DNA from: a virus
IMG/VR virus record: IMGVR_UViG_3300012928_000001
Span: 32,001-96,000 of that record
DNA length: 64,000 nt
Reading direction: 5' to 3' (one strand)
The stretch's first letter is position 1; the number at the start of each line of letters is the position of its first letter. The translations under genes were made by a program, and so were the position numbers. Below, piece by piece: positions 606 to 17,778 of the stretch. The notes under the pieces are model-generated. The model searched no databases and was not told where the DNA came from. It saw only the letters and a program-made list of their open reading frames with translations.

Positions 606-647
606 ACCTCTCGCGCAGCTCATGGATGAGCGCGAAGGCCATCGCAA

Positions 648-678
648 AGAGCCGCCCACGGATGGGCGGCTCTTTTTT
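648..678 (+). terminator. intrinsic terminator
   Basis: AGAGCCGCCCA-CGGA-TGGGCGGCTCT hairpin followed by T tract. Confidence 0.85.
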
Positions 679-709
679 GTGTCTCGCACTCGGTTTTGGC
701 CTACGGTAG
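679..709 (+). promoter_or_regulatory. conserved phage promoter, copy 1
   Basis: GTGTCT-N17-TACGGT; ATG 8 nt after the -10. Confidence 0.75.
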
Positions 710-715
710 ATCGAC

Positions 716-856
716 ATGATCGAACTCTGGAATCGCTACCTGCACGACCCGACCGTGTTTGTGGAATACACATTCTGCGGCGGTCTGATCTTGGTCTTTG
801 TCGCCTGCGCGCTGCGGTCGGCCTGGGTCGAGCTACTCAAAAAGGCGGGGTGGTGA
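716..856 (+). CDS. small membrane protein (46 aa, MIELWNRYLHDP...)
   Basis: Not in ORF track; follows the promoter, hydrophobic core, TGATG overlap with dUTPase. Confidence 0.6.
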   Translation: MIELWNRYLHDPTVFVEYTFCGGLILVFVACALRSAWVELLKKAGW

Positions 857-1308
857 TGGCTGACCTGCTCGTCGAGGTCACCACGGCGCCCCAGGCCCCG
901 ACCAAGGGCACGCCGCTCGCCGCTGGGTGGGACTGCTACGCGCCCACCCCCGGCTGCGTCCGGCCGGGCGAGACCGCCGTCATTCCGCTGGGGATCAAGC
1001 TGGCCCCCTCGATCGGCCTGACCCGCGACACGGCGCACGGCCACGACTTCATGGTCGAGCTGCGCGGGCGGTCGAGCCTCGCCGCTCAGGGCGTCCTGAC
1101 GCACGTCGGGACCATCGACGCGGACTACCGCGGCGAGGTCTCGGCCATCGTCACCAACCTCGGCGGCGCCCCCTTCGAGTGGCGCCGCGGCGACCGGGTC
1201 TGCCAGCTCGTCGTGGTCCCGCTGATCCCCGTCGAGATGCGCCGCGTCGAGCGAGTCGAGGCCGACACGGAGCGCGGCGACGGAGCCATGGGGAGCACGG
1301 GACGATGA
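856..1308 (+). CDS. dut: trimeric dUTPase
   Basis: Motifs AGWD, GRSS, GTIDADYRGE, RVCQL, RGDGAMGSTG. Confidence 0.95.
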   Translation: MADLLVEVTTAPQAPTKGTPLAAGWDCYAPTPGCVRPGETAVIPLGIKLAPSIGLTRDTAHGHDFMVELRGRSSLAAQGVLTHVGTIDADYRGEVSAIVTNLGGAPFEWRRGDRVCQLVVVPLIPVEMRRVERVEADTERGDGAMGSTGR

Positions 1309-2531: not shown

Positions 2532-2959
2532 CCAAAGGACCCACAAAGAAAGATCGAAAGGCTCGGGCCCTGCGCAAGCGATTGCAGGGTCTACCGGATG
2601 ATCATATCATGGTACTGGGCGGGCTGCTGGCATGGTATCCCGTGCTGTTGCCTGAGTCGGCGGGCACTGTTGCCGAGGCCCATGAGTACCTGACGCGCGG
2701 GTACTCGCCCATTTGCTGGCCCCACTACAAGACCTCGCTCGGTGCGCTGTTCTCCCGAAATCTGTTGACTCTCGCACGGTGGACTGTCGAATATAGGTTC
2801 GACGATTGGACCACAAAAGAGCGGCGCTTTTCAGTTGAGCTATGCGATGATTTGGCCGAACTGGCGAAAGCGCGTAACTTCGATGTGCTGTTTGCAATCA
2901 AGCATGGAGAGTCACGCGACGGCGTGAGCAGGTACATGGAGAGTCACGCGACGGCGTGA
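2528..2959 (+). CDS. hypothetical protein, paralog-like to the preceding gene; C-terminus altered by a 32-bp duplication
   Basis: ATGA overlap; both end in similar motifs (NMDVIDAVK / NFDVLFAIK). Confidence 0.55.
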   Translation: MTKGPTKKDRKARALRKRLQGLPDDHIMVLGGLLAWYPVLLPESAGTVAEAHEYLTRGYSPICWPHYKTSLGALFSRNLLTLARWTVEYRFDDWTTKERRFSVELCDDLAELAKARNFDVLFAIKHGESRDGVSRYMESHATA

Positions 2960-2969
2960 GCAGGTACAT
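2903..2969. repeat. perfect 32-bp tandem duplication
   Basis: CATGGAGAGTCACGCGACGGCGTGAGCAGGTA x2. Confidence 0.95.
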
Positions 2970-2987
2970 TGGGAAAACGGCCGTACG

Positions 2988-3200
2988 ATGATCGCAACAT
3001 GGGACCAAGCGCGCGCGACCTTTGAACACATGATGGATTTGCGCGAGCAGATGGCCGCCGTCAAAGCGGTGATTGCTGATCTCTACTTTTGGGAGTGGCG
3101 CGAACGCAGACGGCTCAATGCGCAACTGAACCGGCTAGCCGGTTTGGAAGCGGAATGCGCACGCATGTATTGGTGGTCGATCCGTCAGCTTACCGTGTGA
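2988..3200 (+). CDS. hypothetical protein
   Basis: Short helical ORF ending at the next promoter. Confidence 0.55.
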   Translation: MIATWDQARATFEHMMDLREQMAAVKAVIADLYFWEWRERRRLNAQLNRLAGLEAECARMYWWSIRQLTV

Positions 3201-3227
3201 CTAGCAGGTCTATTCGGCCTACAGTCA
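3197..3227 (+). promoter_or_regulatory. conserved phage promoter, copy 3
   Basis: GTGACT-N17-TACAGT; ATG 6 nt downstream. Confidence 0.8.
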
Positions 3228-3231
3228 TTCG

Positions 3232-4014
3232 ATGCTGATTCACCCAAAACTGATCATACCCCTCCTGATAGCTAGCCTCGCGGGCTGTGTCATCGACGAT
3301 GGCACGACGCCTTGCGAGGAATCGGCCGACGAAGACGGGGGCGACGAGAACGGCGAAGAGGGAGCGACGTGCGAGGCTCTGATCATGCCCGAGTACACCC
3401 GTAACGGGTACATGTACTGCGGGCAATCGGAGTCTCTCGGCGAGCACCTTCCCGATGGCACGGTCACGGCCTACGGCGTGACCGACTACGTCTTCGAGAC
3501 GAGCACGCACACCCAGACGATGCTCTGGGATTACGTGGATCTCAACTGGCAATCGCCAGACCCGTGGTCGGCCGAGTACAACGCCTATGTGCAGTTGCCG
3601 GGCGTCGTCTCGCACACCGTGCTCGGGCAAGAGTACATGGCCTTCATGTCGCGCGGTTGCTGCCCGCAACGCGTGATCGAAGGTTGGTACGGCGACCCGC
3701 TGCCCAACGCCGCGTGCAGCGGCGGGCACCAACTCAACGACACGCCGATGGCGTGGTGCCTCGACCTGCTCGACGGCACCGACTCGGGTGCGTGCGTGTA
3801 CCCGTGCGACGACGATCTCGACTGCCCCAACCCCGCGCAAGAGTTCTGCGACACGACCGTCCAGGACTTCTACGGCACCGCCGCGGGCGTGTGTCGCTAC
3901 GATGCGACGTGGCAGGTTCCCACGTCGCTGGAGATGATCGGCGACCCGATGCCCCCGCCCCCGCCCTCGCCCGAGGGCCAGCCTTCCACCCACACCCCCA
4001 ACGTCAACCGCTGA
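3232..4014 (+). CDS. Cys-rich acidic lipoprotein
   Basis: Signal peptide with lipobox SLAGC; many Cys; CDDDLDC motif. Confidence 0.8.
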   Translation: MLIHPKLIIPLLIASLAGCVIDDGTTPCEESADEDGGDENGEEGATCEALIMPEYTRNGYMYCGQSESLGEHLPDGTVTAYGVTDYVFETSTHTQTMLWDYVDLNWQSPDPWSAEYNAYVQLPGVVSHTVLGQEYMAFMSRGCCPQRVIEGWYGDPLPNAACSGGHQLNDTPMAWCLDLLDGTDSGACVYPCDDDLDCPNPAQEFCDTTVQDFYGTAAGVCRYDATWQVPTSLEMIGDPMPPPPPSPEGQPSTHTPNVNR

Positions 4015-4025
4015 CCCACAAGCCC

Positions 4026-5837
4026 ATGAACACGACCAAGACCAAGATCAAGCTTCGCCTCGCCGCGCTCCTGCTCGGCCTCCCCATCGCCGCGTGCGGC
4101 GTCCTGGAGGGCGAGCAGAACGACGGACAGATCGGCGACGACGACATCGGAGCCGCCGACGAGGTGGGCGACGAGGCCGACGGCGGCGACGAGTGGAACG
4201 AGCCCGAGCCCGTGGTCGACCACGGCGTCGCTGACTTCTGCGTCGAGCGGGTGCAGGACCACACGGAGAACGGGACCTACTTCGTCCCCGGCGCCGAGCA
4301 GATCGCAGACCACGAGCGCTGGGCGACGCACATCGGGCGGACCTACGATGGCCACTTGTCGATCAAGGACAAGCCCTCGCCCAAGCAAGTTCCGCTCATG
4401 TGCCCCATCGACTGGCCGCACTTCGAGGACTACGCCGGACAGGCGCTCAAGGATGGCGGCTCGCCGTCCTGCCTGAACGCGAACTACCACTTGCAACTCC
4501 CCTTCCTCGGGTTCTCGGACTGGTCCGATCCGGGCTACCGCGTGCACGGCTACAGCCGCGACATCATGGTGTCCACGATCGGCAACCCGCCCGAGAGCGG
4601 TCGGCACACGCTCATGGACGTGGGGTGCTGCGCGGTCCCGCCGACCGAGCTCGAACTCGACTCGCCGACGTGGCATCCCGTCGTGTCGACCTACGGGCTG
4701 ACGGCCTTCGCCGGCAAGCCCGATGCCGACTGTGCGGCCTACGTCGGTTCGGTGGGCGTGCACAGCGACGCGGAGGGCTACCCGGCCTTGTACGCGCCGG
4801 CCGAGAACATCTCGGGCGTGATGACGTTCTCGACGTGCAACAACTCGACGAGTTACGACGGGATTCACGATGCGATGTTCGGCGCGCTCAAGATCGGCGC
4901 CCCGATCCACTTCCACCCGACGCGCTCGGCGGACCAGGCCCCGATCAACCTCAACTATGAGTATATGGTGAAGTTCAACACCTTCTCGTGGGAGGACTTC
5001 GCCGCCTTCGGGCCGATCATCGACGGCGCGATCAAGTGGCTGATCGGCAAGCTGTACTTGCCCCCGGGCGAGGAGGACTACCCCCACGCCCGCATGCGCG
5101 CGGGCGGGTTCTGTCACTTCCCGGTGGCGCTGCGTTGGTCCAACAGCAGCAACACGATCGGGGCGCGCTTCACCTGCCCGCTCGGCTACTACGCGGATTT
5201 CCCCAACTTCTACGTGGCCGAGGAGACCACGCAAATCAACGGCGTGGTCGGGACGTGTCGTCTCGACGGCGGCGAGTACGGGAGCGGCTCCGGCTTCGCT
5301 CCCCAAGGCCGCGTGGTCGACTACATCGACGGGCACAACAGCGGCTTCGGGCAGGTCGGGCAGGGCGGGGCCTACTACGTCGTGTCGGACCCGGCCAAGC
5401 TCGGCGAGCTCTTCGAGGCCGCCGAGGGCGACGGGCGCATCGGCCCCGAGCTCGCCCAGCTGCTCTCGGCCGTCGACGCCGACGGGAGCGAGCTCGACGT
5501 GGTGAGCGAGAACGCGGCGATCGAGTGGTGGAGCTCGCCCCACCGCGCCGACCCGCAGCCCATCGCCGACGCCCTCGTGCAGACCTTCGAGTATGACCTC
5601 GACGCGCTGCTGGCCGAGGGCATCGACGCCGACGATGCCAAGCGCTGGGCGGACGGCCCGATCCAGCGGCTCTCTGAGCTCGTCGAGGGCCTGCCCGAGC
5701 ACCTCGCCGACCGCTCGACCGTGACGCTGCGGGAGCACCACACGTGGCACCTGCGCGTCCGCGATCGGGTCGACGGCCAAGAGGTGATCAAGTTCCTCCA
5801 CTTCGTGGAGAACCCGAACCTCGACAACCCCGAGTGA
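4026..5837 (+). CDS. large Cys-containing lipoprotein (603 aa)
   Basis: Basic N-terminus, hydrophobic stretch, lipobox IAAC, acidic linker. Confidence 0.8.
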   Translation: MNTTKTKIKLRLAALLLGLPIAACGVLEGEQNDGQIGDDDIGAADEVGDEADGGDEWNEPEPVVDHGVADFCVERVQDHTENGTYFVPGAEQIADHERWATHIGRTYDGHLSIKDKPSPKQVPLMCPIDWPHFEDYAGQALKDGGSPSCLNANYHLQLPFLGFSDWSDPGYRVHGYSRDIMVSTIGNPPESGRHTLMDVGCCAVPPTELELDSPTWHPVVSTYGLTAFAGKPDADCAAYVGSVGVHSDAEGYPALYAPAENISGVMTFSTCNNSTSYDGIHDAMFGALKIGAPIHFHPTRSADQAPINLNYEYMVKFNTFSWEDFAAFGPIIDGAIKWLIGKLYLPPGEEDYPHARMRAGGFCHFPVALRWSNSSNTIGARFTCPLGYYADFPNFYVAEETTQINGVVGTCRLDGGEYGSGSGFAPQGRVVDYIDGHNSGFGQVGQGGAYYVVSDPAKLGELFEAAEGDGRIGPELAQLLSAVDADGSELDVVSENAAIEWWSSPHRADPQPIADALVQTFEYDLDALLAEGIDADDAKRWADGPIQRLSELVEGLPEHLADRSTVTLREHHTWHLRVRDRVDGQEVIKFLHFVENPNLDNPE

Positions 5838-5841
5838 TCCG

Positions 5842-5868
5842 AAGGGCCCGCGAGAGCGGGCCCTTTTT
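5842..5868 (+). terminator. intrinsic terminator
   Basis: AAGGGCCCGC-GAGA-GCGGGCCCTT followed by T tract. Confidence 0.85.
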
Positions 5869-5870
5869 CT

Positions 5871-5901
5871 GTGACTTGCACTCGTCTACGGCCTACGGTA
5901 G
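5871..5901 (+). promoter_or_regulatory. conserved phage promoter, copy 4
   Basis: GTGACT-N17-TACGGT; ATG 8 nt downstream. Confidence 0.8.
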
Positions 5902-5907
5902 GGCACC

Positions 5908-6177
5908 ATGCCCAAAGACCCCAAGACCAAGACCAAACCCCGCCTCGACCTCAAAGACAAGGCCTTGATCACCGGCGTCGTGATGTCGCTGATCGCCGGG
6001 CTCTGTCTCTTGCTGATCCCCAGTCTCGTGTGGTCCGTGATGACGTACATCATCATCGCCCTCATCGGGATGAGCTTTCCGCACATGTACAACATGCGGA
6101 ACGCGACCAACCTCGCCCTGGTCATCGACCTGCTGTTTCTGCTCGCGTGGGCCCTCTTGCAGGTCCAGCAAAACTAG
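5908..6177 (+). CDS. small multi-pass membrane protein
   Basis: About 3 hydrophobic segments. Confidence 0.7.
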   Translation: MPKDPKTKTKPRLDLKDKALITGVVMSLIAGLCLLLIPSLVWSVMTYIIIALIGMSFPHMYNMRNATNLALVIDLLFLLAWALLQVQQN

Positions 6178-6179
6178 CT

Positions 6180-6210
6180 GTGACTCGCAGGCCCGAGCGG
6201 CCTACAGTAG
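6180..6210 (+). promoter_or_regulatory. conserved phage promoter, copy 5
   Basis: GTGACT-N17-TACAGT; no start codon at the usual distance. Confidence 0.8.
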
Positions 6211-6346
6211 GGTGCCCGGATGGTCCGGGCATGCGCGCCGAGTTCAAAAAACTTTGGCGAGTGGAGGGCTCGGCGCGTTTCGGGGAGAAGTCGCAAGACA
6301 CCCAACGAACCCCGGAGATCGGTGGATCTCCGGGGTTCACCTTTTG
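6210..6346 (+). ncRNA. candidate structured small RNA
   Basis: Lies between promoter copy 5 and a 14-bp terminator-like hairpin; two internal stems. Confidence 0.5.
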
Positions 6347-6363
6347 TGTGCTACCATGATTAG

Positions 6364-7098
6364 ATGCGCTACGTAGGCGGCAAGACTCGGATCGCAAAAG
6401 AGCTCACCCCGTTCATCCTCGCGGCGGCCAAGAAAGCTGGCACATCGACGATCATCGAGCCCTTTTGCGGGGGCCTGGGCATGACGTGCGCACTCGTGAA
6501 AGCGTCGCCGTTCGTTCGCGTCGAGGCCAGTGATTACGCGCCCGGACTCATCACGCTCTATCGCAGCATCCGCGCCGGATGGAAGCCGCCCACCGATCTA
6601 GACAAAGCGCAGTGGGCGGAGCTCAAAAAGCGCGCGGGCGAAGATCACCGCCTAGTTGCATTCGCGGGGTTCGGGTGCAGCTTCAATGGGATCTACTTTT
6701 GCGGGTACGGGACCGAAAAGTTCCCCGGACAGGCCGCGCGAGGGCTCCGCAAAAAGCTCGACATCTGCACGCCCAAGCGGGTCACCCTAGAGTCCCGCAG
6801 CTATGCGGACATCGAGGTCACCGGCCCGTGTGTGATCTACTGCGATCCGCCCTATCGTGGCTGTGACCGCGACTCCTATCGCGCCCTGCACGGCACCCCA
6901 CACGAGCGATTCGACAGCGACGCGTTTTGGGAGTGGGCTCGCGTGTGCGCGGACAAGGGCGCGCATGTGCTCGTGAGCGAGTACGTAGGCCCGGACTGGG
7001 CGCGCGTACTGTGGCAGCGCGAGATCGTCTCCATGACCGGGAATCACAACGGTAAGGGCGACAAGGCAACCGAGAGGTTGTTTTACGTCGCGCCTTGA
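6364..7098 (+). CDS. dam: DNA adenine methyltransferase (Dam/D12 class)
   Basis: RYVGGK, EPFCGG, IYCDPPY, LVSEY, ERLF. Confidence 0.9.
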   Translation: MRYVGGKTRIAKELTPFILAAAKKAGTSTIIEPFCGGLGMTCALVKASPFVRVEASDYAPGLITLYRSIRAGWKPPTDLDKAQWAELKKRAGEDHRLVAFAGFGCSFNGIYFCGYGTEKFPGQAARGLRKKLDICTPKRVTLESRSYADIEVTGPCVIYCDPPYRGCDRDSYRALHGTPHERFDSDAFWEWARVCADKGAHVLVSEYVGPDWARVLWQREIVSMTGNHNGKGDKATERLFYVAP

Positions 7099-7115
7099 TT
7101 CATGCTGGTCCCACC

Positions 7116-8639
7116 ATGGGCGTACCAAAAGAGCAATTCGATGAATGGGTAGAGATCCCCTGGACGTTTCCCGAGGACACCATGTGTTGGGACGGCGACC
7201 GAGGTGGGACGGCGCCGCTACTCCTCGAAGACTATCAGCGGCAGTTCATGGACTGTCCGGCGAAGTATCGGGGTGTGAACAAATCGCGCCAGGTGGGGTA
7301 CTCATTCGTGTTCGCGGTCGAGTCGCTCACTCGGGCGATCATGGACCCCGGCCACACGTCGATGTTTGTCAGCTACAACCTCGACGACGCGCGAGAGAAG
7401 ATCACGATCATCCACAAGCTGCTCGATCTCAGCCCGGCGCTGCACGGTCTCGCTGATTTCGACGCGCTGAAAAATGACGTGAAAGTGAAGCCCAAGTGGG
7501 CGCGCAAGTGGTCGCTGATTCGGTCCCTCCCGTGCAGGCCCGTGCGAGGAAAGACCAAGGCTGATCTGTACCTCGACGAGATCGCCCACTATCAGGACGC
7601 AGAGCAGGTCTATCTCGGCAGCGCGCCCGCGACCGTGCGCTCCCTGACCGGTGGACAGATCACCGTTGCCAGTACCCCGAACGGGCGTGCTGGCATTTTC
7701 TGGGAGTGCATCGAGGGCCCGCGCTCGCGCCCGTACTGGAAGCAAAACGTCCCGTGGTGGGAGAGCCGGTATCTGTGCAGCGATGTCGAGCTCGCGCGCC
7801 GCGAGGCCGGGCTCATGACCACGGACGCGCGCATCTCAAAGTTCGCGCTGCCCAACCTCGTCGAGCTCTACGATGGCATGGCGCTGATCGACTTCCAGCA
7901 GGAATTCGAATGCGATTTTGTCGACGATGGATCGTCATACTTCCCGATGGACCTTCTCAACAAGAACGTCTGTCGGGATCGCCGATTGTGCCGAGATTTT
8001 GATGAGGTCTTGGAGAAGCGCCACCCCAAGGGCCAGCTTTTCGCCGGGGTCGACATCGGGCGATTCAAGGACACCACCGAAGTGGTGATTCTCGATCGGT
8101 GGCCTACGGAAAGCGCGTCAACGGGGTACGCCTATAGCCCGATGATGGTCATGACCATGGACCGCGTGAACACTCAGGAGCAAGGCGACCGGCTAGAGAC
8201 GCTCTTGAAGCATCCTGCGATTGAGCGGCTCTGGATCGACACTACTGGCATTGGTCTCGCCATCGGCGAGCGCCTGCGCAACGCCTTCCCTCGCAAGGTT
8301 GTGGGCGTCATGTTCACGACCCCGAGTAAAGAGCTCATGTGCGTGCTAGCTCGGCGCTCGTTCGAAAGGCTACTCGTCGACTTGCCTGATCCCGAGCACG
8401 AGGACAGCCGCGCCGGCCGTGAGGCCCGACTGTTCATCGATCACATCCACTCGATCAAGCGCCACGCGGGGACGGGCCGGCACGCTCGCTATGAGGCCGA
8501 GAGCACGACACACCACGGCGATCAGTTCTGGGCCTTTGCGCTCGTCATGCTGTGCGCCCATGAGGACCTGAAACCGCGACGCGATACGGCAACCCTGCGA
8601 GACGTTATCGACGTTTCGCTAGAGGCGAGTTTGGTATGA
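7116..8639 (+). CDS. terL: terminase large subunit
   Basis: KSRQVGYS, LYLDE, ASTPNG, GVDIGR, IDTTGIG, HGDQFWA. Confidence 0.92.
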   Translation: MGVPKEQFDEWVEIPWTFPEDTMCWDGDRGGTAPLLLEDYQRQFMDCPAKYRGVNKSRQVGYSFVFAVESLTRAIMDPGHTSMFVSYNLDDAREKITIIHKLLDLSPALHGLADFDALKNDVKVKPKWARKWSLIRSLPCRPVRGKTKADLYLDEIAHYQDAEQVYLGSAPATVRSLTGGQITVASTPNGRAGIFWECIEGPRSRPYWKQNVPWWESRYLCSDVELARREAGLMTTDARISKFALPNLVELYDGMALIDFQQEFECDFVDDGSSYFPMDLLNKNVCRDRRLCRDFDEVLEKRHPKGQLFAGVDIGRFKDTTEVVILDRWPTESASTGYAYSPMMVMTMDRVNTQEQGDRLETLLKHPAIERLWIDTTGIGLAIGERLRNAFPRKVVGVMFTTPSKELMCVLARRSFERLLVDLPDPEHEDSRAGREARLFIDHIHSIKRHAGTGRHARYEAESTTHHGDQFWAFALVMLCAHEDLKPRRDTATLRDVIDVSLEASLV

Positions 8640-8929
8640 GCAAACGGAACATCAACGCACTGATTGAAAAGCGCTACCAACAGCACGTCGCCGCGGCGCG
8701 CAAGCGCAATGGGGGCAAGTCGCTGACGCCGATAGAGCAATCGAAGCTGCGCCAATTCGCCGAGCTCGACGTGCTCGGAACCGATCGCACGTCACTCGCC
8801 GACTACGACAAGGAGCAGGCCGAGAAACGGCGTCACGAGCAAGTGGTCAGCGATTTGAAGCGCGACGAAGCGCGCGAGGTGTTCGAGGCCCGGCGACTGC
8901 TGGAGCTTTTTCCTGACGATCCATTGTGA
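8636..8929 (+). CDS. hypothetical protein
   Basis: ATGA overlap with terL. Confidence 0.65.
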   Translation: MSKRNINALIEKRYQQHVAAARKRNGGKSLTPIEQSKLRQFAELDVLGTDRTSLADYDKEQAEKRRHEQVVSDLKRDEAREVFEARRLLELFPDDPL

Positions 8930-8954
8930 CTCGCATTGCTGGCCAGCCTACAGT
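8926..8954 (+). promoter_or_regulatory. conserved phage promoter, copy 6
   Basis: GTGACT-N17-TACAGT; ATG 5 nt downstream. Confidence 0.75.
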
Positions 8955-8959
8955 CGAGC

Positions 8960-9205
8960 ATGGAGAACGCGATCCCCGATCGACTGTACACACTCGCGCA
9001 AGCTGGCCTCGCTACCGACGACCCCGATTCAGGGCTAGAAGTCACGTTTGAGCTGCGCCGCGGCATCACGGAGCAGGCCGCGAGCGGCTACTTGACCCCG
9101 TGGCGCCTCGCGGGGTGGCGCGTGCACGTGGCCATGCGCCGCAAGCGAGTTCGCGTCACCCTCGACGGGCGGCTCCCCCGTGCGCCCCGTTGCCGGCTCG
9201 TGTAA
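8960..9205 (+). CDS. hypothetical protein
   Basis: Leaderless ATG after the promoter. Confidence 0.55.
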   Translation: MENAIPDRLYTLAQAGLATDDPDSGLEVTFELRRGITEQAASGYLTPWRLAGWRVHVAMRRKRVRVTLDGRLPRAPRCRLV

Positions 9206-9214
9206 GCTCGCCTC

Positions 9215-10474
9215 GTGGCAACGCTCACCGATGCTGATTGGTACACGCTCACCGGGGATACGTATGTCCAAAACACGGCGCAGCTTTTTGCCGCTAGTTT
9301 CGAGGACACGATCACTCGTGCGCTCGCAGTCTTTGGCCCACGCACTGGACCGTTTGGCGCCGAGCTGGACAACGCGCAGCTTTACGGGATCTTGCAGACG
9401 CAGGGGATCACGTTCACGTCCGCGCAAGTGATCGACTCGGTCAACGTGCTTTTGCAGCGCGGGATCTTCTACCGCACGCTCGGCCCGAACCGTGCCGAGT
9501 ACATCAAAGCCGAGAATCAGGTGCCGCCTTTTTCCGAGGGTGGTGCTGGCTTTGGCGACGCGGCCACGAGCACGGCCGTCCCGGTGATCCGCCGCGGCCC
9601 TCAGGGGGAGCCCGGGCTGCAAGGCCCCGCCGGCCCCCAGGGGCCGCGAGGAATTCAGGGCACGACCGGCGTCCAGGGTCCCCAGGGAGCCACAGGCCCG
9701 GCCGGTGCCATGGGACCCCCAGGGCCCCAGGGCGACCCAGGGCCCGCGCTCGTGCCCGAGTCGTTCGCGTGGGCGTCGACGCAGCTCATCACCGCGGTCG
9801 CCAACACCTTCTACCTCATCTTCCCGGGGGCGCCCTCGGGCATGTTGACGCTTCGGCTCCCGGTCACGCCCCCGAACGGGACGCGGATCGGCCTGAGTCT
9901 CCCGACGAGCTCGCTCGCGGCGGCGGGGCAGCCCCTGACCTTGCTCGGCGGCGGCGCGACCATCTCGCTCCCGGTGGCCAATGAAGCCATGACTGTCCTC
10001 CTACAGCCAACCGATCCGCTGCTCCGCCCCGGCTTCGGATTGATCTTGACCTACTCGCAGAATGGCAATAGGTGGGTTACGTCTACCTGGTTTCAGGATG
10101 AGATCAATTTGCCGATTGGGCCTGATCGGCGAAACTCGTTTACGTCGACCGGAACTTACATCGATCTCGAAACACTCGGTACGGTTGCCGAAGGCGAAGC
10201 GTTCACATTCGAGGGGTCGGTGTCCGCGAGCTATCAGACCGGAGCGGGCGCGCGCTTCGTGGACATCATCCAAGTTCGTGGCACTGCTCGGCGCAACATG
10301 GGTGCACCCGGAACAACCGTGACAAGCAACATGCTTCCGAGCGGCAACCTACCCGGCGGCGACGCGCGGATCTTCGTGGTCGCCGGACAGAACGACGTGC
10401 GTCTACAGGTTCGCACGACCACCGCGGGCCAGACGTTGATCGTCGCGTGGAATGGAATTTGGCGATCGCTGTGA
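9215..10474 (+). CDS. collagen-like (Gly-X-Y) fibre protein
   Basis: 17 consecutive G-X-Y triplets at 9596-9748; beta-rich C-terminus. Confidence 0.85.
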
Positions 10475-10501
10475 CTCGCATGATCGTTCGGCCTACAGTA
10501 G
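10471..10501 (+). promoter_or_regulatory. conserved phage promoter, copy 7
   Basis: GTGACT-N17-TACAGT; GTG 5 nt downstream. Confidence 0.8.
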
Positions 10502-10504
10502 GCC

Positions 10505-10789
10505 GTGCCACGCAAAAAGACATACGACCCCAGCCGGGGTAAGCAGACCTGCAAGCGCTGCGGCACCGAAGCCCGGCCGCTCCGCCACAACAAAACGTGC
10601 GCGCTTTGTGGGGTCACGTGTTGCATGAATCAGCCCGGCACCGTCTCCGGCTTGGTCTGCGAAAAGCCGACCCGGCAGTCTCGCCGTAGCCGCCGGATAA
10701 ACCCGGAGGGCGTGTGGGTGACCAAGGTTTTTTGCTCACAAAAATGCGTCGACAACTTCGCCGTTGTGCAGACGATCAGAGGTCTTTGA
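10505..10789 (+). CDS. Cys-rich Zn-finger-like protein
   Basis: Several CxxC pairs, FCSQKC. Confidence 0.6.
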   Translation: MPRKKTYDPSRGKQTCKRCGTEARPLRHNKTCALCGVTCCMNQPGTVSGLVCEKPTRQSRRSRRINPEGVWVTKVFCSQKCVDNFAVVQTIRGL

Positions 10790-10790
10790 C

Positions 10791-11162
10791 ATGAACGAAA
10801 ACGAGCTACTTCAATCCGTATTCAGCAAATGCCCCGTGTGCGAGGGCCCGGTCGACATCACCACGGCGGAGACCGTGAGCGTGCCGCGAACAGACGGGGG
10901 CGACTTCACCGAAGTCGTGGTGGTCTGCTCGGAGAGCTGCGCCGCCGCGGCCGAGACCATCGCAGCGATCGAGGCCGACGACGGCCGCCACCGCGAGCAC
11001 GAGGAAGAGCCCGAGGCCGACGTGAAGCCCGGAGCCAAGTTCCACGCGTACACGCTCGACGAGTTCAAGCGGCCCGAGCCTGACGAGGCCGACGACATCT
11101 CGCGCAAGTCGATGGCCGAGCTCATGGCCGGCGAGCTCCAAGAGCGCAGCGACGCATACTGA
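10791..11162 (+). CDS. Zn-finger (CPVC...CSESC) acidic protein
   Basis: TRASH-like Cys pattern. Confidence 0.6.
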   Translation: MNENELLQSVFSKCPVCEGPVDITTAETVSVPRTDGGDFTEVVVVCSESCAAAAETIAAIEADDGRHREHEEEPEADVKPGAKFHAYTLDEFKRPEPDEADDISRKSMAELMAGELQERSDAY

Positions 11163-11188
11163 CTCGGGTGTGGTAGGCTGGGCGCTCC

Positions 11189-11755
11189 ATGACCGCGCCT
11201 AACCTCGAACACATCGTGACGCCGTTGCGCCAGTTCGCCGTCCCGATTTCCGACCTGACCCCGGACCCGAAAAACGTCCGAATCCACAGCAAGCGCAACC
11301 GCGATGCGCTGCGCGTCAGCTTGACGAAATACGGGTTCATTGAGCCGATCATCGTCCAGCGGCAGGGCATGATCATCCGCGCGGGGAACTGTCGCACGAA
11401 GCTCGCGGGAGAGCTCGGATGGACCCACGTCCCCGCGCTCATCGTCGACCACAACGACGTCGAGGCGACGGCCTTCGCCATCACGCACAATCGCACAGGC
11501 GAGCTCGGCGAGTGGGATGAGAAGGCCCTCGCGCAACAGCTCGCGGAGCTGCAAGCGAGCTCGATCGAGCTGTTCACGACGACGGGTTTTGACGCGGCCG
11601 AGGTCGATAGGCTGCTCGGGACCCCGCTCGTGATTCCTGACGACCCCGTCGAAGAGCTGACCCCGCCGGACAGCTTCCCGGAGATCGACGGGACCGAGCC
11701 CACCGATCACCGCTGCCCCTCGTGCGGCTACGAATGGAACGGGAAGTCGAAGTGA
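11189..11755 (+). CDS. ParB/Sulfiredoxin N-terminal domain protein with C-terminal Zn ribbon
   Basis: PDPKNVRIH, YGFIEPII, IRAGNCR, NRTGELGEWD, CPSCGYEW. Confidence 0.88.
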   Translation: MTAPNLEHIVTPLRQFAVPISDLTPDPKNVRIHSKRNRDALRVSLTKYGFIEPIIVQRQGMIIRAGNCRTKLAGELGWTHVPALIVDHNDVEATAFAITHNRTGELGEWDEKALAQQLAELQASSIELFTTTGFDAAEVDRLLGTPLVIPDDPVEELTPPDSFPEIDGTEPTDHRCPSCGYEWNGKSK

Positions 11756-12006
11756 TCGAGCAGCTCCGCCGTCGGCTCGACTATACCGACCGCCTACTGG
11801 TCCGGCTGCTCTCGCAGCGGTCGGGTCTCGTGGCCAAGGTCCAGCGCGCCCGCGCAGCCGGGGGCGGGCCCTCGCGGGACCCTGAGCGTGAGGAGGTCGT
11901 GCGAGCCCGCGCCGAGCAGCTCGCCCGCGAGCTCGGGGGCTACCCGCCCGATGTTGTGCTCACGATCTTCGAGATTCTGTTCGCCAACGCGGAGCGGGCC
12001 CAATGA
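11752..12006 (+). CDS. chorismate mutase (AroQ / CM_2 type)
   Basis: IEQLRRRLDYTDRLLVRLLSQR...RDPEREEVV...Q pattern; GTGA and ATGA overlaps with both neighbours. Confidence 0.85.
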   Translation: MIEQLRRRLDYTDRLLVRLLSQRSGLVAKVQRARAAGGGPSRDPEREEVVRARAEQLARELGGYPPDVVLTIFEILFANAERAQ

Positions 12007-13091
12007 AGCCGCCGTACTACGTGCCGACCATGGCTGTGGTCGAGGCCGCGCGGGGGACCAATGGCTACACCGCGGTCTCGACGTTCTCGGGCGCGGGCGG
12101 CAGCTGTCTCGGGCACACCCTCGCCGGCTTCGCTGTGCTGTGGGCGAATGAGTTCATTCCCGCTGCGCAAGATACCTACATGCGGAATCATCCTACCTCG
12201 CATCTCGATACCCGAGACGTGCGAGAGGTGCAGGGCGCCGACATCCTGAACGCGGTCGGAAAAGACATCGGGGAGATCGATCTTTTCGATGGCAGCCCGC
12301 CGTGCTCCGCGTTCTCGAATGCGGGGAGTCGGGGCCAGCAGTGGGGAAAGATCAAAGGCTACAGCGACACCAAACAGCGGGTTGATGATCTGCTCTTCGA
12401 GTTCGCGCGTCTCGTCGCGTTCACGCGCCCGCGGGTGTTCGTCGCTGAGAACGTTGGGGGGTTGCTCCGCGGTAAGGGGTTGGGACGGTTTCGGGAGCTC
12501 GTCAAGCGTCTGCCGGGGTACACGATCCGCGCTCAGACCATGGACGCGGTTTGGATGGGCGTCCCCCAACGCCGCGAGCGGGCGATCATCATCGGTGTTC
12601 GCAGTGATCTAGGAGTGCCGCCAGCATTCCCGAAGCCGCTGAAATACTACTACACGGCCGGAGACGCGCTCCCGTGGCTACGCGCTCCCGCGGGCACCCG
12701 CGTTGCGCGTCTGGGCGAGATCACCGATCGCGTCCCTCTAGCCAAGAGCCGGCGCGAGGGCAAAAAGTACAACACCTACGAAGTGCTCCCACATAGGCCC
12801 TGTCCCACCGTCACCGTGGCGAGCGATGGCAATGACCTGTTTATCATCGGTCCGACTGAGCAGGAAGCCAATGCTGGCATCATCGCGCCCGCGGACCCGC
12901 GGAAGATCAATATCTCCGAGCTCCGCCGCCTGTGTGGCTTTCCTCCAGACTTCCAGCCTACTGGGTCGTTCTCGAAGCAATATGAGCGACTCGGCCGCGC
13001 TGTTCCGCCACCCATGATGTGCGCCGTAGCCTCGACGATCCGCGATGCTGTGCTACGAAAAGCAGACCATGGGCAGCAACAGCAGCATTGA
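12003..13091 (+). CDS. DNA cytosine-C5 methyltransferase family; putative carboxymethyltransferase
   Basis: Motif I FSGAGG, IV GSPPC, VI ENV, VIII QRRER, X LGRAVPP (R in place of the usual N). Confidence 0.92.
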   Translation: MKPPYYVPTMAVVEAARGTNGYTAVSTFSGAGGSCLGHTLAGFAVLWANEFIPAAQDTYMRNHPTSHLDTRDVREVQGADILNAVGKDIGEIDLFDGSPPCSAFSNAGSRGQQWGKIKGYSDTKQRVDDLLFEFARLVAFTRPRVFVAENVGGLLRGKGLGRFRELVKRLPGYTIRAQTMDAVWMGVPQRRERAIIIGVRSDLGVPPAFPKPLKYYYTAGDALPWLRAPAGTRVARLGEITDRVPLAKSRREGKKYNTYEVLPHRPCPTVTVASDGNDLFIIGPTEQEANAGIIAPADPRKINISELRRLCGFPPDFQPTGSFSKQYERLGRAVPPPMMCAVASTIRDAVLRKADHGQQQQH

Positions 13092-13782
13092 TCACACCCC
13101 CGAGGACCGCTGGGTCTTTGACGAGTCCGTCGCGGATTGCTTCGAGGACATGTTGTCCCGATCCATCCCACAACACGACGAGATGCGCCGACTCGTCGGC
13201 AACGTCGGCGGGGTCGGGGTGGCCGACGGGACCCTTGTCGTTGACTTGGGATGTAGCCTCGGTCAGGCGATTGTCGACGTGCGCCGAGTAGCTCTCTCGC
13301 GTGGCATCAATGCGGTGTATCATGGGCTGGAGACGAGCGCTCCGATGCTTGATCGTGCCAAAGCGCGATTCGACTCTGTCGATGTCTTTGTAACGAACGA
13401 AGATGTGCGGACATGGAACGGCGACAACTGTAGCGTGGTGCTGGCAGTGCTTACGCTACAGTTCATCCCGATCAACTACCGACAGCAAATCATCCGCAAC
13501 GTATTCGAGTCCCTGAACCCCGGTGGGCGCTTCGTGCTCGTCGAGAAAGTGCTGGGCGAAGGGGCGCAGGTCGATGATCTCATGGTCGCGCACTATCACC
13601 ACAACAAACTCCAACAGGGCTATTCGAGGCAAGCTGTACGAGCGAAAGCGGAGTCCCTCGAAGGTGTGTTGGTCCCGGTGACTGCTGGCATGAACGAATC
13701 GATGCTTCGCCGTGCGGGCTTCCGTGAGGTAGACTGCTTTTGGCGATGGATGAATTTCGCGGCATGGGTGGCGATCAAGTAG
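13069..13782 (+). CDS. cmoA: CmoA-like carboxy-S-adenosylmethionine synthase
   Basis: WVFDESVADCFEDMLSRSIP, DLGCSLG, TLQF, LNPGGRFVLVEK, GYS..K..LEGV, AGF...W.NF, collinear with E. coli CmoA as recalled. Confidence 0.85.
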   Translation: MGSNSSIDHTPEDRWVFDESVADCFEDMLSRSIPQHDEMRRLVGNVGGVGVADGTLVVDLGCSLGQAIVDVRRVALSRGINAVYHGLETSAPMLDRAKARFDSVDVFVTNEDVRTWNGDNCSVVLAVLTLQFIPINYRQQIIRNVFESLNPGGRFVLVEKVLGEGAQVDDLMVAHYHHNKLQQGYSRQAVRAKAESLEGVLVPVTAGMNESMLRRAGFREVDCFWRWMNFAAWVAIK

Positions 13783-13976
13783 CCTGCGAACACCCGAGCC
13801 CCACAGAGCTCGTGCCCGGCGTGAAGTTGTGTCGGGGCTGTGGGGCTCTCCATGTGAACGGTCGATGGGGGCGCGTCCCGTTGCCCCCAAAGCCGTGCTG
13901 TGAGGAGTGCGAGCAGAACCGTCGACGGCTCGCCGATACTTGGTACAGAGAGCGTAAGTGTGCAGGTTGCAAATGA
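13764..13976 (+). CDS. small Cys-rich protein
   Basis: CRGC, CCEEC, CAGC; overlaps both neighbours. Confidence 0.4.
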   Translation: MGGDQVACEHPSPTELVPGVKLCRGCGALHVNGRWGRVPLPPKPCCEECEQNRRRLADTWYRERKCAGCK

Positions 13977-14295
13977 GATCCGGCGCGCGTTTCTCCGCGC
14001 CCAAATGCGCGTTGATCTGGAGCGCAACCTAGACGCGCTAGCAGATGCGCATGGGGTGAGCGTCGAGTACGTCGCGGGTATGATCAAACACGTGATCGAG
14101 ACCTGCGCGGGGGACCACGTTGACATGCTCTTCGCCGTAGACAGTCGGCTCCAGCGGGGCGTGCATGTCGAGCCCGTCGCGCCCCTGACCGAGACCGTCA
14201 ACAAAGTACAGGCGGCGCTGTCGTCAGGCCTGAAAGACGTGGTATCGTCTGGCCCGAATGCGCTACAGCGTGAAAGTCTTCGCCGTCCGGTGTGA
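13900..14295 (+). CDS. hypothetical protein (true start probably downstream)
   Basis: ORF track; helical C-terminal region. Confidence 0.55.
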   Translation: MRSASRTVDGSPILGTESVSVQVANEIRRAFLRAQMRVDLERNLDALADAHGVSVEYVAGMIKHVIETCAGDHVDMLFAVDSRLQRGVHVEPVAPLTETVNKVQAALSSGLKDVVSSGPNALQRESLRRPV

Positions 14296-14494
14296 CGAGA
14301 AGGGCCGGCGCCTGCCCACCCCCGAGGGCAAAAAGCCCTACGTCGCCCAGGACCGGGTTCACGTCGAGGCCCAGGGACACGATGCCGCCAAGGCAGCTGC
14401 GCGCGCCGAGCTGTCCAAGGGCCGTGGCCGGGTCATCTCGATCAACTTCGAAAGCGATACCGCGCTCGTGGCGTACGTGGAGAGCAGCAAATGA
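14258..14494 (+). CDS. hypothetical protein
   Basis: GC3-rich ORF, ATGA overlap with next. Confidence 0.65.
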   Translation: MRYSVKVFAVRCDEKGRRLPTPEGKKPYVAQDRVHVEAQGHDAAKAAARAELSKGRGRVISINFESDTALVAYVESSK

Positions 14495-14856
14495 GTCGCC
14501 GTGCAATCATTGGTAACGAGGCCGATCTAACGCGGCATCTCCCGACCGACCCCAACGACCCCGACACGCTCGTCACGGGCAATTCGGAGACCTACGATGT
14601 GTCGCGGTTTCAGATGCAGACGGCGGCGGTACACTTCGGTTTTGACGCGGGCTCTTCTGGCGACTACACGCTACAGGGAGCCGTTGGTAGTTCGAGTCCT
14701 TGGGTGGATATTCAATCGAACATCACAAGCGATACGCTGATCAACTTCTCGGAGCCGCCGAATAATCATTACTGGGCTCGGTTGCGTGTTGTTGTGAATA
14801 CTGTAGGCGCCGAAGATGATACAATCACCCTCGGCGCGCACGAGTACGTTTGGTAG
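14491..14856 (+). CDS. hypothetical beta-sandwich virion-like protein
   Basis: YTLQG...PWVDI...RLRVVV pattern. Confidence 0.6.
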   Translation: MSRRAIIGNEADLTRHLPTDPNDPDTLVTGNSETYDVSRFQMQTAAVHFGFDAGSSGDYTLQGAVGSSSPWVDIQSNITSDTLINFSEPPNNHYWARLRVVVNTVGAEDDTITLGAHEYVW

Positions 14857-14876
14857 TCGCAAAAAGGAAATAAAAG

Positions 14877-15791
14877 ATGCCCGGCCGCAATCCAGTTTTT
14901 CCTGCCCCGCGAGATATTCGTCGTCAAACGTACTATCCCGGCGTTTCGCTATCGCTTGCCGAGATGGTCGCGCTCGGCCATATCGCGGGCGCAAAAATTG
15001 TGCACTTTACCGGACGCCGAGAAGATGTAGACGGTGAGGCCGAAGCATGGTCGGCACTCCTACCGACTACGCGTGCCCCATACCGGCCCGATATTTCTGG
15101 CGGACCTATTGGGTGGACTCCCGAGCCTTTGACGGCGCAGAGTACTTCGTCAGATGACGGGGGCGCCGGATCGGGTGCGCAGGTACTACTAGTTGAATAC
15201 CTGAACGCGGATGGGTTTGAACGCATTGGTCTCGCACTGCTCGCGGGAACGGGGACAGTACCGGTTCTCGAAGCAACGTCACAAGGTGTTGGTAATGCAA
15301 ACACCATTGTCCCGTTGATGCCTCCAACGCCTGCTACGGGAGTACGCGTAAACCGCGTAACAGTAGTTGCCGGTGGTGTGCCAGCAGGGAACTGCACCGT
15401 CGAACTTGGTGGTCAAGCTGCACAGCGGCTGCTTCCGGGTCAAGCGCTGTCATCGACAAGTCGCTTTACTGTGCCACGTGGATTTATTGGGTTGATTCAC
15501 GGTCTCGGCTATGGTGTTGATCGTGAACAGCGGGGGCTCGTGCGTGTTTATGCACAGCCGCTCGGGCGGCTGGACTATGAGTTCACCGCCTACGAGGCCA
15601 GTAACGGTGCCCTTGCGGTACCGCTTGCAGAGCCAATTCGGCTAGCACCGCTGGGTGAGTTGGGACTAACTTTTGAAAAGGACTCGGGTGGTGGAAACAT
15701 CGATGTATCCAGCATTCTGCAACCGATCTTCCTCCCGGATCCCAACGACCCTGATCCAGCGCCAGAACGACAAGCGCCGCCGTTGGGCTGA
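14877..15791 (+). CDS. hypothetical virion-associated protein
   Basis: 304-aa ORF with SD (AAGGA); lower GC3 than neighbours. Confidence 0.65.
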   Translation: MPGRNPVFPAPRDIRRQTYYPGVSLSLAEMVALGHIAGAKIVHFTGRREDVDGEAEAWSALLPTTRAPYRPDISGGPIGWTPEPLTAQSTSSDDGGAGSGAQVLLVEYLNADGFERIGLALLAGTGTVPVLEATSQGVGNANTIVPLMPPTPATGVRVNRVTVVAGGVPAGNCTVELGGQAAQRLLPGQALSSTSRFTVPRGFIGLIHGLGYGVDREQRGLVRVYAQPLGRLDYEFTAYEASNGALAVPLAEPIRLAPLGELGLTFEKDSGGGNIDVSSILQPIFLPDPNDPDPAPERQAPPLG

Positions 15792-15798
15792 GTAGAAC

Positions 15799-17778
15799 AT
15801 GAGTGCTCTAGACGCTTTTTTTGCTACTGAGTTGCCGCCTCAACGCTCCTCGGTAGAAAAAGTCGACACAGCAAATGACGCCGTAAGTAAGGGGTCTGTG
15901 CGTACGTCATACACGGGACGAGACGGTACAGAGCGAAGCAACGTACTACAGACAGACGCAGGGACGCGACGGTTGTTCGCACGGCATGGTGCCATTGAGC
16001 CGCCTTTGGACCCTATTATGCTTGCGCATTTGCACGAGATGAGTGGGGCGCTGCGCTCAAACATCGATGCATATGTCACTAACATTGACGGTTTCAGCCA
16101 CACGTTTGAGCCGTCACTAGATCTTGACGATGACGAGACCCGCGAGCGCATCGCCCAGGCCATGCTCGAAGAGCGGATCCTCGGGGTGGTCCAAGAGGCG
16201 AGTGTCGAGGAGCAGGCCAAGCGCCTGCTGAAAGAGTTCGCCGCCGCGAATGATGGGGAGGATGGAGAGCCGACCGGGGCCGACGATCAAGCCCCCCTCG
16301 ACGTCACGCCACCGACCGATGCCGAGGTCGAGGCACGGATCGACGCCATCCGCCGGGAGATGATCCGCGAGCGCATGCGGCTCGAACGGTTTTTTGAGTT
16401 CTGCTGCGTCACGGAGAGTTTCATGTCTCTTCGCATGCGCACGCGGCAGGACATCGAGCTGATCGGGAATGGCTATTGGGAGGTGCTGCGCAACTCCAAC
16501 GGCGACATCGTGCAGTTCACGTATGTGCCAGCATTCACGGTGCGACTACTCCCGGCCGACAAGGACCCGATCGAGGTCGAGATGCCGGTGAAGCTCACCG
16601 CCATCACGGAGAACACCGAGACCGTCGTTCGCCGCTTCCGCCGATTCTTGCAGATCAGCGAGACCCGCGAGCGCACGGTGATCTACTTCAAGGAGTTCGG
16701 CGACCCACGCGTGGTGAGCTCGAAGACCGGCGAGGTCTACGAAACCCCCGAACTACTGGCAAAGGCGGAGGGCGACACTCGCCCCGCTACCGAGATGATC
16801 CACTTCAAAGTTCACAACTCCCGGACGCCCTACGGCGTGCCCCGGTGGGCGAGTGAGCTGCTCGGAGTGCTCGGCAACCGCAACGCCGACGAGGTCAACC
16901 TCGCGTACTTCGAGAACCGTGCGATCCCGCCGATGATCCTCACCGTCTCGGGTGGTCGTCTCGCGGGTGACTCCGCGACGGTCTTTGAGAACTACTTCAA
17001 ATCCCAGATCCGCGGCAAGCGGCACCATCACAGTGTGGCGATTGTCGAGGCCGAGCCCCCGGGACTCGCGGGCGGCATGACGAACGGCACCGTCAAGCTC
17101 GACGTGATCAAGCTGCGCGATGTCCAGCAGGATGACGCGATGTTCATGGGCTACCGCGAGGCCAACGTCGACGCGATCGGCTCCGTGTTCCGCATGCCCC
17201 GGCTGCTCCGCGGCGACGTGCGAGACTTCAACCGCGCGACCGCCCAGACCGCCCTCGACTTCGCCGAAATGCAGGTGTTCGCACCGCTCCGCGCTGAGTT
17301 CGATTTCACGATCAACCGGCAGATCCTCGCCGACTTTGGCGTGCGGTTTTGGAAGTTCAAGAGCGGCACGCCGGACTTCTCCGACCCCGCCGAAGTGCTG
17401 CAAAATCTCCAGCTCGCGGAGAAGTACCTCGTGCCCAACGAACAGCGCGAGGCGGCCGCGGGAGCCCTCGGCCGCGAGCTCGAAAAGCTCGACGCGGCCT
17501 GGGCCCGGGAGCGTCCTCTCGCCGTCACGCTCGCCGCCATCGAGCGCAAGACGAACCTGGTCGACGTCGACGGCGAGGCCCTGCCCGAGCAGGAGCCCCC
17601 GCCCCCACCCGAGGCCAAGCCGCTCGCGGGCGGGCCCCCAGGAGTCGACGAGGGCGAGGAAGAGCAGGCCAAGGCTATCCGCAAGAGCGTCGACGAGCGC
17701 GTGCGCGACCTGATCGAGCTGCGCGACGCCGCCGATCGGCTCGGGTTCCTGTCGACCAAGGACATGCTCGATGTGTGA
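15799..17778 (+). CDS. portal protein (PBSX-like)
   Basis: IGNGYWEVLRN, EMIHFK, PYGVP, YFENRAIP, FRMP; position before head genes. Confidence 0.9.
   Translation: MSALDAFFATELPPQRSSVEKVDTANDAVSKGSVRTSYTGRDGTERSNVLQTDAGTRRLFARHGAIEPPLDPIMLAHLHEMSGALRSNIDAYVTNIDGFSHTFEPSLDLDDDETRERIAQAMLEERILGVVQEASVEEQAKRLLKEFAAANDGEDGEPTGADDQAPLDVTPPTDAEVEARIDAIRREMIRERMRLERFFEFCCVTESFMSLRMRTRQDIELIGNGYWEVLRNSNGDIVQFTYVPAFTVRLLPADKDPIEVEMPVKLTAITENTETVVRRFRRFLQISETRERTVIYFKEFGDPRVVSSKTGEVYETPELLAKAEGDTRPATEMIHFKVHNSRTPYGVPRWASELLGVLGNRNADEVNLAYFENRAIPPMILTVSGGRLAGDSATVFENYFKSQIRGKRHHHSVAIVEAEPPGLAGGMTNGTVKLDVIKLRDVQQDDAMFMGYREANVDAIGSVFRMPRLLRGDVRDFNRATAQTALDFAEMQVFAPLRAEFDFTINRQILADFGVRFWKFKSGTPDFSDPAEVLQNLQLAEKYLVPNEQREAAAGALGRELEKLDAAWARERPLAVTLAAIERKTNLVDVDGEALPEQEPPPPPEAKPLAGGPPGVDEGEEEQAKAIRKSVDERVRDLIELRDAADRLGFLSTKDMLDV

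Follow-up and report, generated by a model that had tools for sequence, protein, structure and literature searches.

Chorismate mutase gene embedded in a predicted phage operon for carboxymethylation of DNA cytosines

The stretch of viral DNA analysed here (the window) comprises 64,000 nucleotides, bases 32001–96000 of the IMG/VR virus record IMGVR_UViG_3300012928_000001 (105,163 bp). The record represents an uncultured phage, has direct terminal repeats, is rated 100% complete and has a GC content of 64%. Between the genes for the terminase large subunit (TerL) and the portal protein, the window contains four co-directional open reading frames (ORFs) on the plus strand, at positions 11189–11755, 11722–12006, 12003–13091 and 13045–13782. 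In this order, they encode a ParB_N protein, a monofunctional chorismate mutase (CM) of the AroQ class (CM_2), a putative DNA cytosine C5-carboxymethyltransferase of the CmoX type and a CmoA homologue, the putative synthase of carboxy-S-adenosyl-L-methionine (Cx-SAM). These genes probably form an operon of the CmoA-CmoX kind already published for modification of phage DNA, and CM would feed prephenate to CmoA. Every sequence-level test that we ran fits the proposed pathway, except that the CmoA homologue lacks Arg199. The core idea of CmoA acting together with CmoX, as well as the association with ParB, is already published; the new part is a CmoA-CmoX variant with a built-in CM, which is present in at least four lineages.

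The published system was described by Yang et al. (Nat Commun, December 2025; PMC12783734). CmoA of Synechococcus phage S-B43 (SpCmoA) makes Cx-SAM, CmoX (SpCmoX), a homologue of C5-methyltransferases, uses Cx-SAM to make 5-carboxymethylcytosine (5cxmC) at GC sites, and CmoY, an asparagine-synthetase-like ligase, adds glycine to 5cxmC. Candidate CmoX proteins were recognized in that study by an SPPC motif and by Arg350, which contacts the carboxymethyl group. Wild-type SpCmoX accepts Cx-SAM only, and the R350N mutant accepts neither cofactor. The phage contigs of the same study encode 5,615 candidate CmoX, 4,257 CmoA, 2,251 ligases and 1,660 ParB-domain (PF02195) proteins. The original prediction, made from the DNA sequence of the window, stated that phage pairs of CmoA and a methyltransferase had been reported, which is correct (PMC12783734), and proposed that the chorismate mutase and the ParB-N gene might be new. 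For ParB-N this does not hold, since such neighbours are reported in that paper, but CM is missing from it: the word 'chorismate' is absent from its text and from those of its supplements that were searched, and a literature search returned no other paper tying a phage chorismate mutase to CmoA.

The window phage and S-B43 both encode CmoA beside a C5-methyltransferase homologue that has SPPC as well as the Arg that binds the carboxylate, and both lack CmoB. A ParB-domain neighbour is found on many such contigs, and in both cases the predicted product is 5cxmC in double-stranded DNA. The differences are in gene content and order. The window phage has no CmoY-type ligase; its operon contains an AroQ CM, whereas the whole genome of S-B43 contains none; its CmoA is 27–29% identical to SpCmoA; and its gene order is ParB-CM-CmoX-CmoA as opposed to CmoA-CmoY-CmoX in S-B43.

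The four genes are closely joined. The stop codon of the ParB gene (TGA, 11753–11755) overlaps a GTG of the CM gene at 11752 (GTGA), the CM stop codon (TGA, 12004–12006) overlaps the ATG of the transferase gene at 12003 (ATGA), and the CmoA ATG at 13069 starts 23 nt ahead of the transferase stop codon (13089–13091), an earlier in-frame ATG at 13045 being the alternative start. Three starts are available for CM, namely, GTG at 11722 (94 aa), ATG at 11734 (90 aa) and the GTG at 11752 that overlaps the ParB stop codon (84 aa). By these start/stop overlaps, the four genes are translationally coupled. Both the coordinates and the junctions (GTGA, ATGA and the 23-nt overlap) agree with the original prediction, and profile searches return the identities that it had given to the products, with matches of ParB-N to PF02195, AroQ to PF01817, the C5-methyltransferase to PF00145 and CmoA to TIGR00740, the latter below its cut-off. 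By contrast, the proposed −10 box of the operon, TAGGCT at 11174–11179, is a bare match to TANNNT, and a scan of positions 8500–16000 for the sigma-70 consensus detected no promoter. Because the gap between the operon and the upstream ORF is only 26 nt, co-transcription with the upstream genes and transcription from a private promoter are equally possible. The location between TerL and portal is as claimed, but modification before packaging cannot be deduced from it, since this position is uninformative on the timing of modification.

The transferase (12003–13091, 362 aa) matches PF00145 with an E-value of 2e-45 and is the sole PF00145 match, that is, the sole C5-methyltransferase homologue, in the genome. 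Among solved structures, SpCmoX is its best relative (8YF3; E 4e-51, 177 bits), followed by M.HaeIII (E 2e-19, 73 bits). The SPPC motif S98-P99-P100-C101, in the context 'DGSPPCSAFS', aligns with S95-P96-P97-C98 of SpCmoX, and R332 ('ERLGRAVPP') aligns with SpCmoX R350 ('ERVGRMVPP'), at a position where ordinary C5-methyltransferases have Asn (Asn304 in M.HhaI) and M.HaeIII reads 'GNAVP'. F28, E50, F51 and D72 align with F25, E47, F48 and D69, the residues of SpCmoX that contact the adenine and ribose of Cx-SAM. The variable (target-recognition) region does not align with SpCmoX. The carboxylate-binding Arg is present in 59 of 60 C5-methyltransferase homologues located within 6 kb of a phage-type cmoA in IMG/VR. 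We thus assign the transferase to the CmoX type, with predicted transfer of the carboxymethyl group from Cx-SAM. A comparable case is the engineered M.MpeI N374K (PMC12783734), in which a basic residue likewise replaces the Asn of motif X and enables the use of Cx-SAM; the window enzyme differs in being natural, in having Arg rather than Lys and in being encoded together with genes for supply of its cofactor.

CM (11722–12006) matches PF01817 over profile positions 1–77 of 80, with an E-value of 7e-14 and 52.3 bits (cut-off 27). It is below the cut-offs of all NCBIfam CM equivalog models, the best being TIGR01791 (46.2 versus 66.95). Solved relatives include the Thermus CM 2D8D (E 1e-7) and the intracellular CM of Mycobacterium tuberculosis (MtCM). 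Residues R16, R33, D53, R56 and E57 correspond to R11, R28, D48, R51 and E52 of the Escherichia coli enzyme (EcCM), which are invariant or nearly so in CM alignments, and the position of EcCM K39 is occupied by Arg (R44), as it is by R46 in MtCM. The EcCM numbering is our own reading of the sequences, by which we also take S84 to correspond to Ala and Q88 to the final Gln (Q94). A structural model of the CM homodimer scored 0.87 against 0.00 for the best control, with pLDDT of at least 89 and at least 98% of contacts in common among three runs, although this pass may show only likeness to known structures, since AroQ dimers are already solved; the mark that it attained was reached by 20 of 30 solved homo-pairs and by 1 of 23 solved single chains. 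CM is thus predicted to form an intertwined homodimer that builds the active site. With about 90 aa, three helices, the catalytic Arg/Asp/Arg/Glu set, this predicted dimer and the Arg shared with MtCM, it resembles AroQ enzymes such as that of the E. coli P-protein, MtCM (AroQ-delta) and 2D8D, from which it differs in being phage-encoded, divergent and unfused.

The CM gene has a GC content at third codon positions of 0.81, typical for coding sequence of this genome. The protein is a sequence orphan: apart from itself, an exhaustive HMMER search of 1.84 billion representatives gave only distant CMs, the best at an E-value of 1e-8 and 41–48% identity, and no other protein came up in a word-index homology search. 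No match was found by tblastn against 50,697 GenBank phages, and pattern scans of IMG/VR with the CMs of the window phage and of contigs L020 and L071 returned the queries only; given the shortness and divergence of these proteins, neither result proves absence. No prephenate dehydratase, prephenate dehydrogenase or 3-deoxy-D-arabino-heptulosonate 7-phosphate (DAHP) synthase is joined to CM, which would therefore release its product as free prephenate. Host chorismate mutases are commonly fused to, or co-regulated with, downstream enzymes, and a free monofunctional CM would raise the level of free prephenate.

The CmoA homologue is 245 aa long from the ATG at 13045 or 237 aa from that at 13069. 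It matches the solved structure 4GEK of E. coli CmoA with an E-value of 2e-34 and phrog_4752 with 4e-67. Its match to TIGR00740 (E 5e-48) reaches 163.8 bits, short of the curated 193.3-bit cut-off; SpCmoA, the activity of which is described as high (PMC12783734), scores 115.6 bits with the same model and other phage CmoAs score 130–146. D62, G64, S66, D117, F137, E164 and the invariant K198 are conserved, and Glu is found at the position of D89. The protein thus shares with the E. coli CmoA/CmoB pathway, which makes 5-carboxymethoxyuridine at position 34 of tRNA (cmo5U34), the Cx-SAM synthase fold, most cofactor contacts and, by prediction, prephenate as co-substrate. Unlike that pathway, it has no CmoB beside it, Arg199 is not conserved, and the predicted acceptor is C5 of DNA cytosine and not 5-hydroxyuridine of tRNA; moreover, the host pathway draws on the cell's own prephenate pool. 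The lack of cmoB, noted earlier for the window, extends to the complete 105,163-bp genome, which has no match to TIGR00452, leaving no tRNA use for Cx-SAM.

Chorismate mutase is not peculiar to this phage. Loci of phage-type cmoA were collected in three sweeps, comprising 80 IMG/VR loci found with the window CmoA as query, 9 more found with the CmoA of contig L071, and 70 loci from bacterial genomes or metagenome-assembled genomes (MAGs). The IMG/VR records were scanned over their whole length with CM_2, with arrangements taken from Pfam annotation; genome and MAG loci were searched within 6 kb with our own CM profile, which recovered two cases outside its build set. CM is present in 5 of 160 loci, the window phage and 4 of the 89 other IMG/VR contigs. 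The co-occurrence of CM, CmoX and CmoA, for which a neighbourhood survey had been proposed as a check, therefore recurs, albeit rarely. In all five phages CM directly adjoins cmoX or cmoA, and two gene orders are found. Like the window phage, L020 (ParB - CM - CmoX - glutamine-dependent Asn-synthase-type ligase - CmoA) and L111 (CM - CmoX - CmoA) have CM ahead of cmoX, and in L071 (ParB-MTase - ParB - CmoX - CmoA - CM - TerL - portal; MTase, methyltransferase) and L098 (CmoX - CmoA - CM) it follows cmoA. A 343-aa stop-to-stop frame in L098 was considered as a CmoA-CM fusion and rejected, since the CmoA and CM frames differ and the genes are simply adjacent. The five CM-bearing phages occupy four places on the CmoA tree (FastTree; four changes by Fitch parsimony), only L071 and L098 being sisters. 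The other phage CMs are 18–33% identical to that of the window, as compared to up to 48% for bacterial CMs, and the portal families of the window phage and L071 differ. The two orders, about four tree positions, low CM identity and different portal families suggest that CM was captured repeatedly and independently rather than in a single hitch-hiking event.

Several cmoA loci have further neighbours. In L003 the order is CmoX - uracil-DNA glycosylase (UDG)-family protein - ligase - CmoA, directly upstream of the portal gene; within 2870–9945 of this contig, the UDG-superfamily gene lies between cmoX and the ligase gene, and the portal protein has a LAGLIDADG (intein-like) insertion. In L111, a contig classed as provirus, a gene for a STAND/AAA NTPase directly follows cmoA (5074–6363). 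In L090 (Erwinia phage Yoloswag), cmoA is followed by a hypothetical gene, one small gene and a 2-oxoglutarate-Fe(II) oxygenase gene (5022–7609). This phage belongs to an Erwinia jumbo-phage group with 48 GenBank records; no C5-methyltransferase is annotated within 5 kb of cmoA in the L090 record, and Cx-SAM may be used differently in this group. Loci L140–L209 represent phage-type CmoA (43–52% identity) on genome and MAG contigs of many phyla, including Actinomycetota, Cyanobacteria, Planctomycetota, Chloroflexota, Gemmatimonadota and Acidobacteriota, with one bin labelled Nanoarchaeota. These contigs are presumably prophages or mis-binned phage contigs.

Taken in order, the pathway would run as follows. 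CM would convert host chorismate to free prephenate, and CmoA would use prephenate to carboxylate host S-adenosyl-L-methionine (SAM), yielding Cx-SAM. The CmoX-type transferase would then flip out cytosines in replicated, double-stranded phage DNA and place a carboxymethyl group on C5, and the resulting 5cxmC would most likely shield the genome from host nucleases. Having CM in the coupled block would let Cx-SAM synthesis keep pace with modification of the whole genome. This route from chorismate through prephenate and Cx-SAM to 5cxmC had been proposed for the window, and it is also our best reading, with agreement of the sequence tests and the caveat of Arg199 in CmoA. Calling it self-contained is too strong. 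Among extra supply genes sought in the complete genome, neither MetK nor DAHP synthase was found, and by gene content the host must provide both chorismate and SAM.

The end product is probably bare 5cxmC, with no glycine or amide cap, given that the complete genome has no match to PF00733 (Asn_synthase) at E ≤ 0.1 and hence no CmoY-type ligase. Relatives L003 and L020 do have an Asn_synthase-type gene, and such genes are annotated in the records of phages PaBG and TurkishDelight. In native DNA of S-B43, bare 5cxmC was undetected (PMC12783734).

Several observations weigh against this reading. CM is missing from 85 of the other 89 IMG/VR cmoA contigs, many of them fragments, from all 70 prophage/MAG loci (within 6 kb) and from the complete genomes of all eight cultured phages with cmoA, among them S-B43, PaBG and Streptomyces phage TurkishDelight. 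The loci without it include that of L003, the 109-kb phage with the closest CmoA relative (57% identity), as well as 10 IMG/VR and 30 genome loci with a GC content of at least 0.62. This rarity, with CM missing from more than 95% of cmoA loci, implies that it is not needed in general, and in vitro spontaneous rearrangement of chorismate sufficed to feed CmoA without CM. A functional CmoA-CmoX pair might then be accompanied by an unrelated auxiliary metabolic gene (AMG), with CM boosting aromatic amino acids or draining chorismate and standing in the operon by chance; virome surveys indeed class viral chorismate mutases as amino-acid AMGs. We find this unlikely. CM abuts cmoX or cmoA in five contigs out of five, in two orders and in about four lineages, and through the start/stop overlaps CM and the transferase are linked in expression. 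In addition, the phage encodes no further gene of the shikimate or aromatic pathway, DAHP synthase being absent from its genome.

The residues of CmoA present a different difficulty. Arg199, which in E. coli CmoA makes a salt bridge with the Cx-SAM carboxylate (Byrne et al. 2013, PMC3663124), is replaced by Ala, and the only nearby Arg is at position 196. Ala is also found at position 197, which is Arg in 76 of 80 relatives, and His at the position of Y39. Together with the TIGR00740 score, these replacements could mean that the homologue is not a Cx-SAM synthase and that the operon makes ordinary 5-methylcytosine or transfers another SAM-derived group. We hold this to be rather improbable. 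The 80 IMG/VR relatives have R (65), K (9), A (3) or S (3) at position 199. The active SpCmoA scores lower with TIGR00740 and has Glu at that position, so that Arg199 is not strictly required of a Cx-SAM synthase; we accordingly dropped its loss as a disqualifying feature. The CmoAs of L003, L006, L055 and L067 lack Arg199 as well and are nevertheless encoded next to a CmoX of the Arg type. In the window phage, too, the partner keeps the carboxylate-binding Arg that is tied in SpCmoX to exclusive use of Cx-SAM, and an adjoining CM is sensible only if prephenate is consumed. The missing Arg199 is a real caveat, softened by Glu199 of SpCmoA and by these pairings.

It is very improbable that the AroQ-fold protein is instead an isochorismate-pyruvate lyase, an aminodeoxychorismate mutase or an inactive structural or regulatory relic: although its nearest relatives are no more than about 48% identical to it, although it carries Arg for K39 and Ala for S84, variants that are known and that in MtCM go together with a low intrinsic activity, and although the CMs of L020, L071 and L111 match only the first 54–60 of the 80 positions of PF01817, the chorismate-binding R11, R28, D48, R51 and E52 are conserved, the final residue is one that we take to be Q88, the intertwined homodimer is predicted with confidence, and only one protein of the operon, the prephenate user CmoA, is known to consume an AroQ product.

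Why CM would be recruited to a CmoA-CmoX operon may be related to demand. One SAM and one prephenate would be spent per modified cytosine, and 75% of GC sites are modified in S-B43 (PMC12783734). The genome of the window phage contains 22,928 GpC cytosines per copy, or 218 per kb, as compared to 51 per kb in the S-B43 locus; if the GC specificity of SpCmoX is kept, up to 22,928 cytosines per genome copy could be targets, and a large amount of prephenate might be required. The CM-bearing loci are GC-rich, with 0.57–0.71, the other 85 having a median of 0.51 (one-sided Mann-Whitney p = 5e-4, with relatedness ignored), which may reflect either higher demand for Cx-SAM or the host phylum. We lean, with some reserve, towards the view that prephenate rather than SAM limits genome-wide cytosine carboxymethylation in some hosts, and that phages with GC-rich genomes captured small, unregulated CMs about four times into the cmoX-cmoA operon. 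The discussion of PMC12783734 states that prephenate availability needs investigation.

Four 6-bp palindromes are nearly absent from the 105-kb genome, with observed/expected counts of 0/27 for CTGCAG, 0/15 for TCCGGA, 2/105 for CTCGAG and 2/70 for TCGCGA. This looks like classical restriction-site avoidance alongside a modification system. GpC occurs in two of the four palindromes, an unexpected finding if the phage protected all of its GpC sites.

Recurrent recruitment of CM is a direct genetic pointer to the source of prephenate during infection, which was left open in 2025, and the CM-containing operon offers a simple handle for testing that source. If the reading is correct, CM would be the first phage-encoded enzyme of a shikimate branch serving solely to feed a DNA-modification cofactor. 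DNA of this phage, which has no ligase, should carry a bare carboxymethyl handle, and CM, CmoA and CmoX would make up a compact cassette, with its own cofactor supply, for writing 5cxmC in vivo. In a rumen virome study (PMC10465536), viral genes for chorismate mutase, asparagine synthase and a DNMT-like protein are listed separately, as metabolic or defence AMGs; in combination, they resemble components of a module of the CmoA-CmoX-CmoY type. Were this so, such genes in virome surveys would belong to one DNA-hypermodification pathway and not to amino-acid metabolism. The finding also cautions against taking viral genes for chorismate mutase and asparagine synthase to be nutritional AMGs.

The first gene of the operon (11189–11755) encodes a ParB_N protein of 188 aa that matches PF02195 (E 9e-7, 29.4 bits, cut-off 26.3), phrog_620 (E 3e-36) and phrog_498, the ParB end of methyltransferase fusions (E 3e-32). 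A ParB relative is found within 6 kb of cmoA in 48 of the 80 IMG/VR loci. The protein is probably an accessory DNA-binding or nuclease-like partner that is common beside phage CmoX, and it may help loading onto DNA or its targeting.

Downstream of the operon, the portal gene (15799–17778, plus strand) matches PF04860 with an E-value of 5e-14. The ORFs between cmoA and portal (13740–15791) gave no informative family matches. The first of them, a Cys-rich ORF of 78 aa (13740–13976, plus strand), overlaps the end of cmoA and has no family match, and an ORF in 14877–15791 falls in viral hypothetical-protein clusters. Upstream, TerL (7095–8639, plus strand) matches Terminase_6N and Terminase_6C; its best cultured relative is 31.5% identical, and host inference from TerL gave no result. 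A collagen-repeat, tail-fibre-like protein is encoded between TerL and the operon (9215–10474, plus strand). In a 359-aa ORF at 229–1308 (plus strand), a dUTPase/dCTP-deaminase-like domain is present at the C terminus (PF00692, E 3e-22), and the N-terminal half has no assignment. Directly upstream of TerL, and overlapping it, lies a gene for a D12-class (Dam-like) N6-adenine DNA methyltransferase (6364–7098, plus strand; PF02086, E 1.5e-11; phrog_56, E 6e-29), a second DNA-modification enzyme near the packaging genes.

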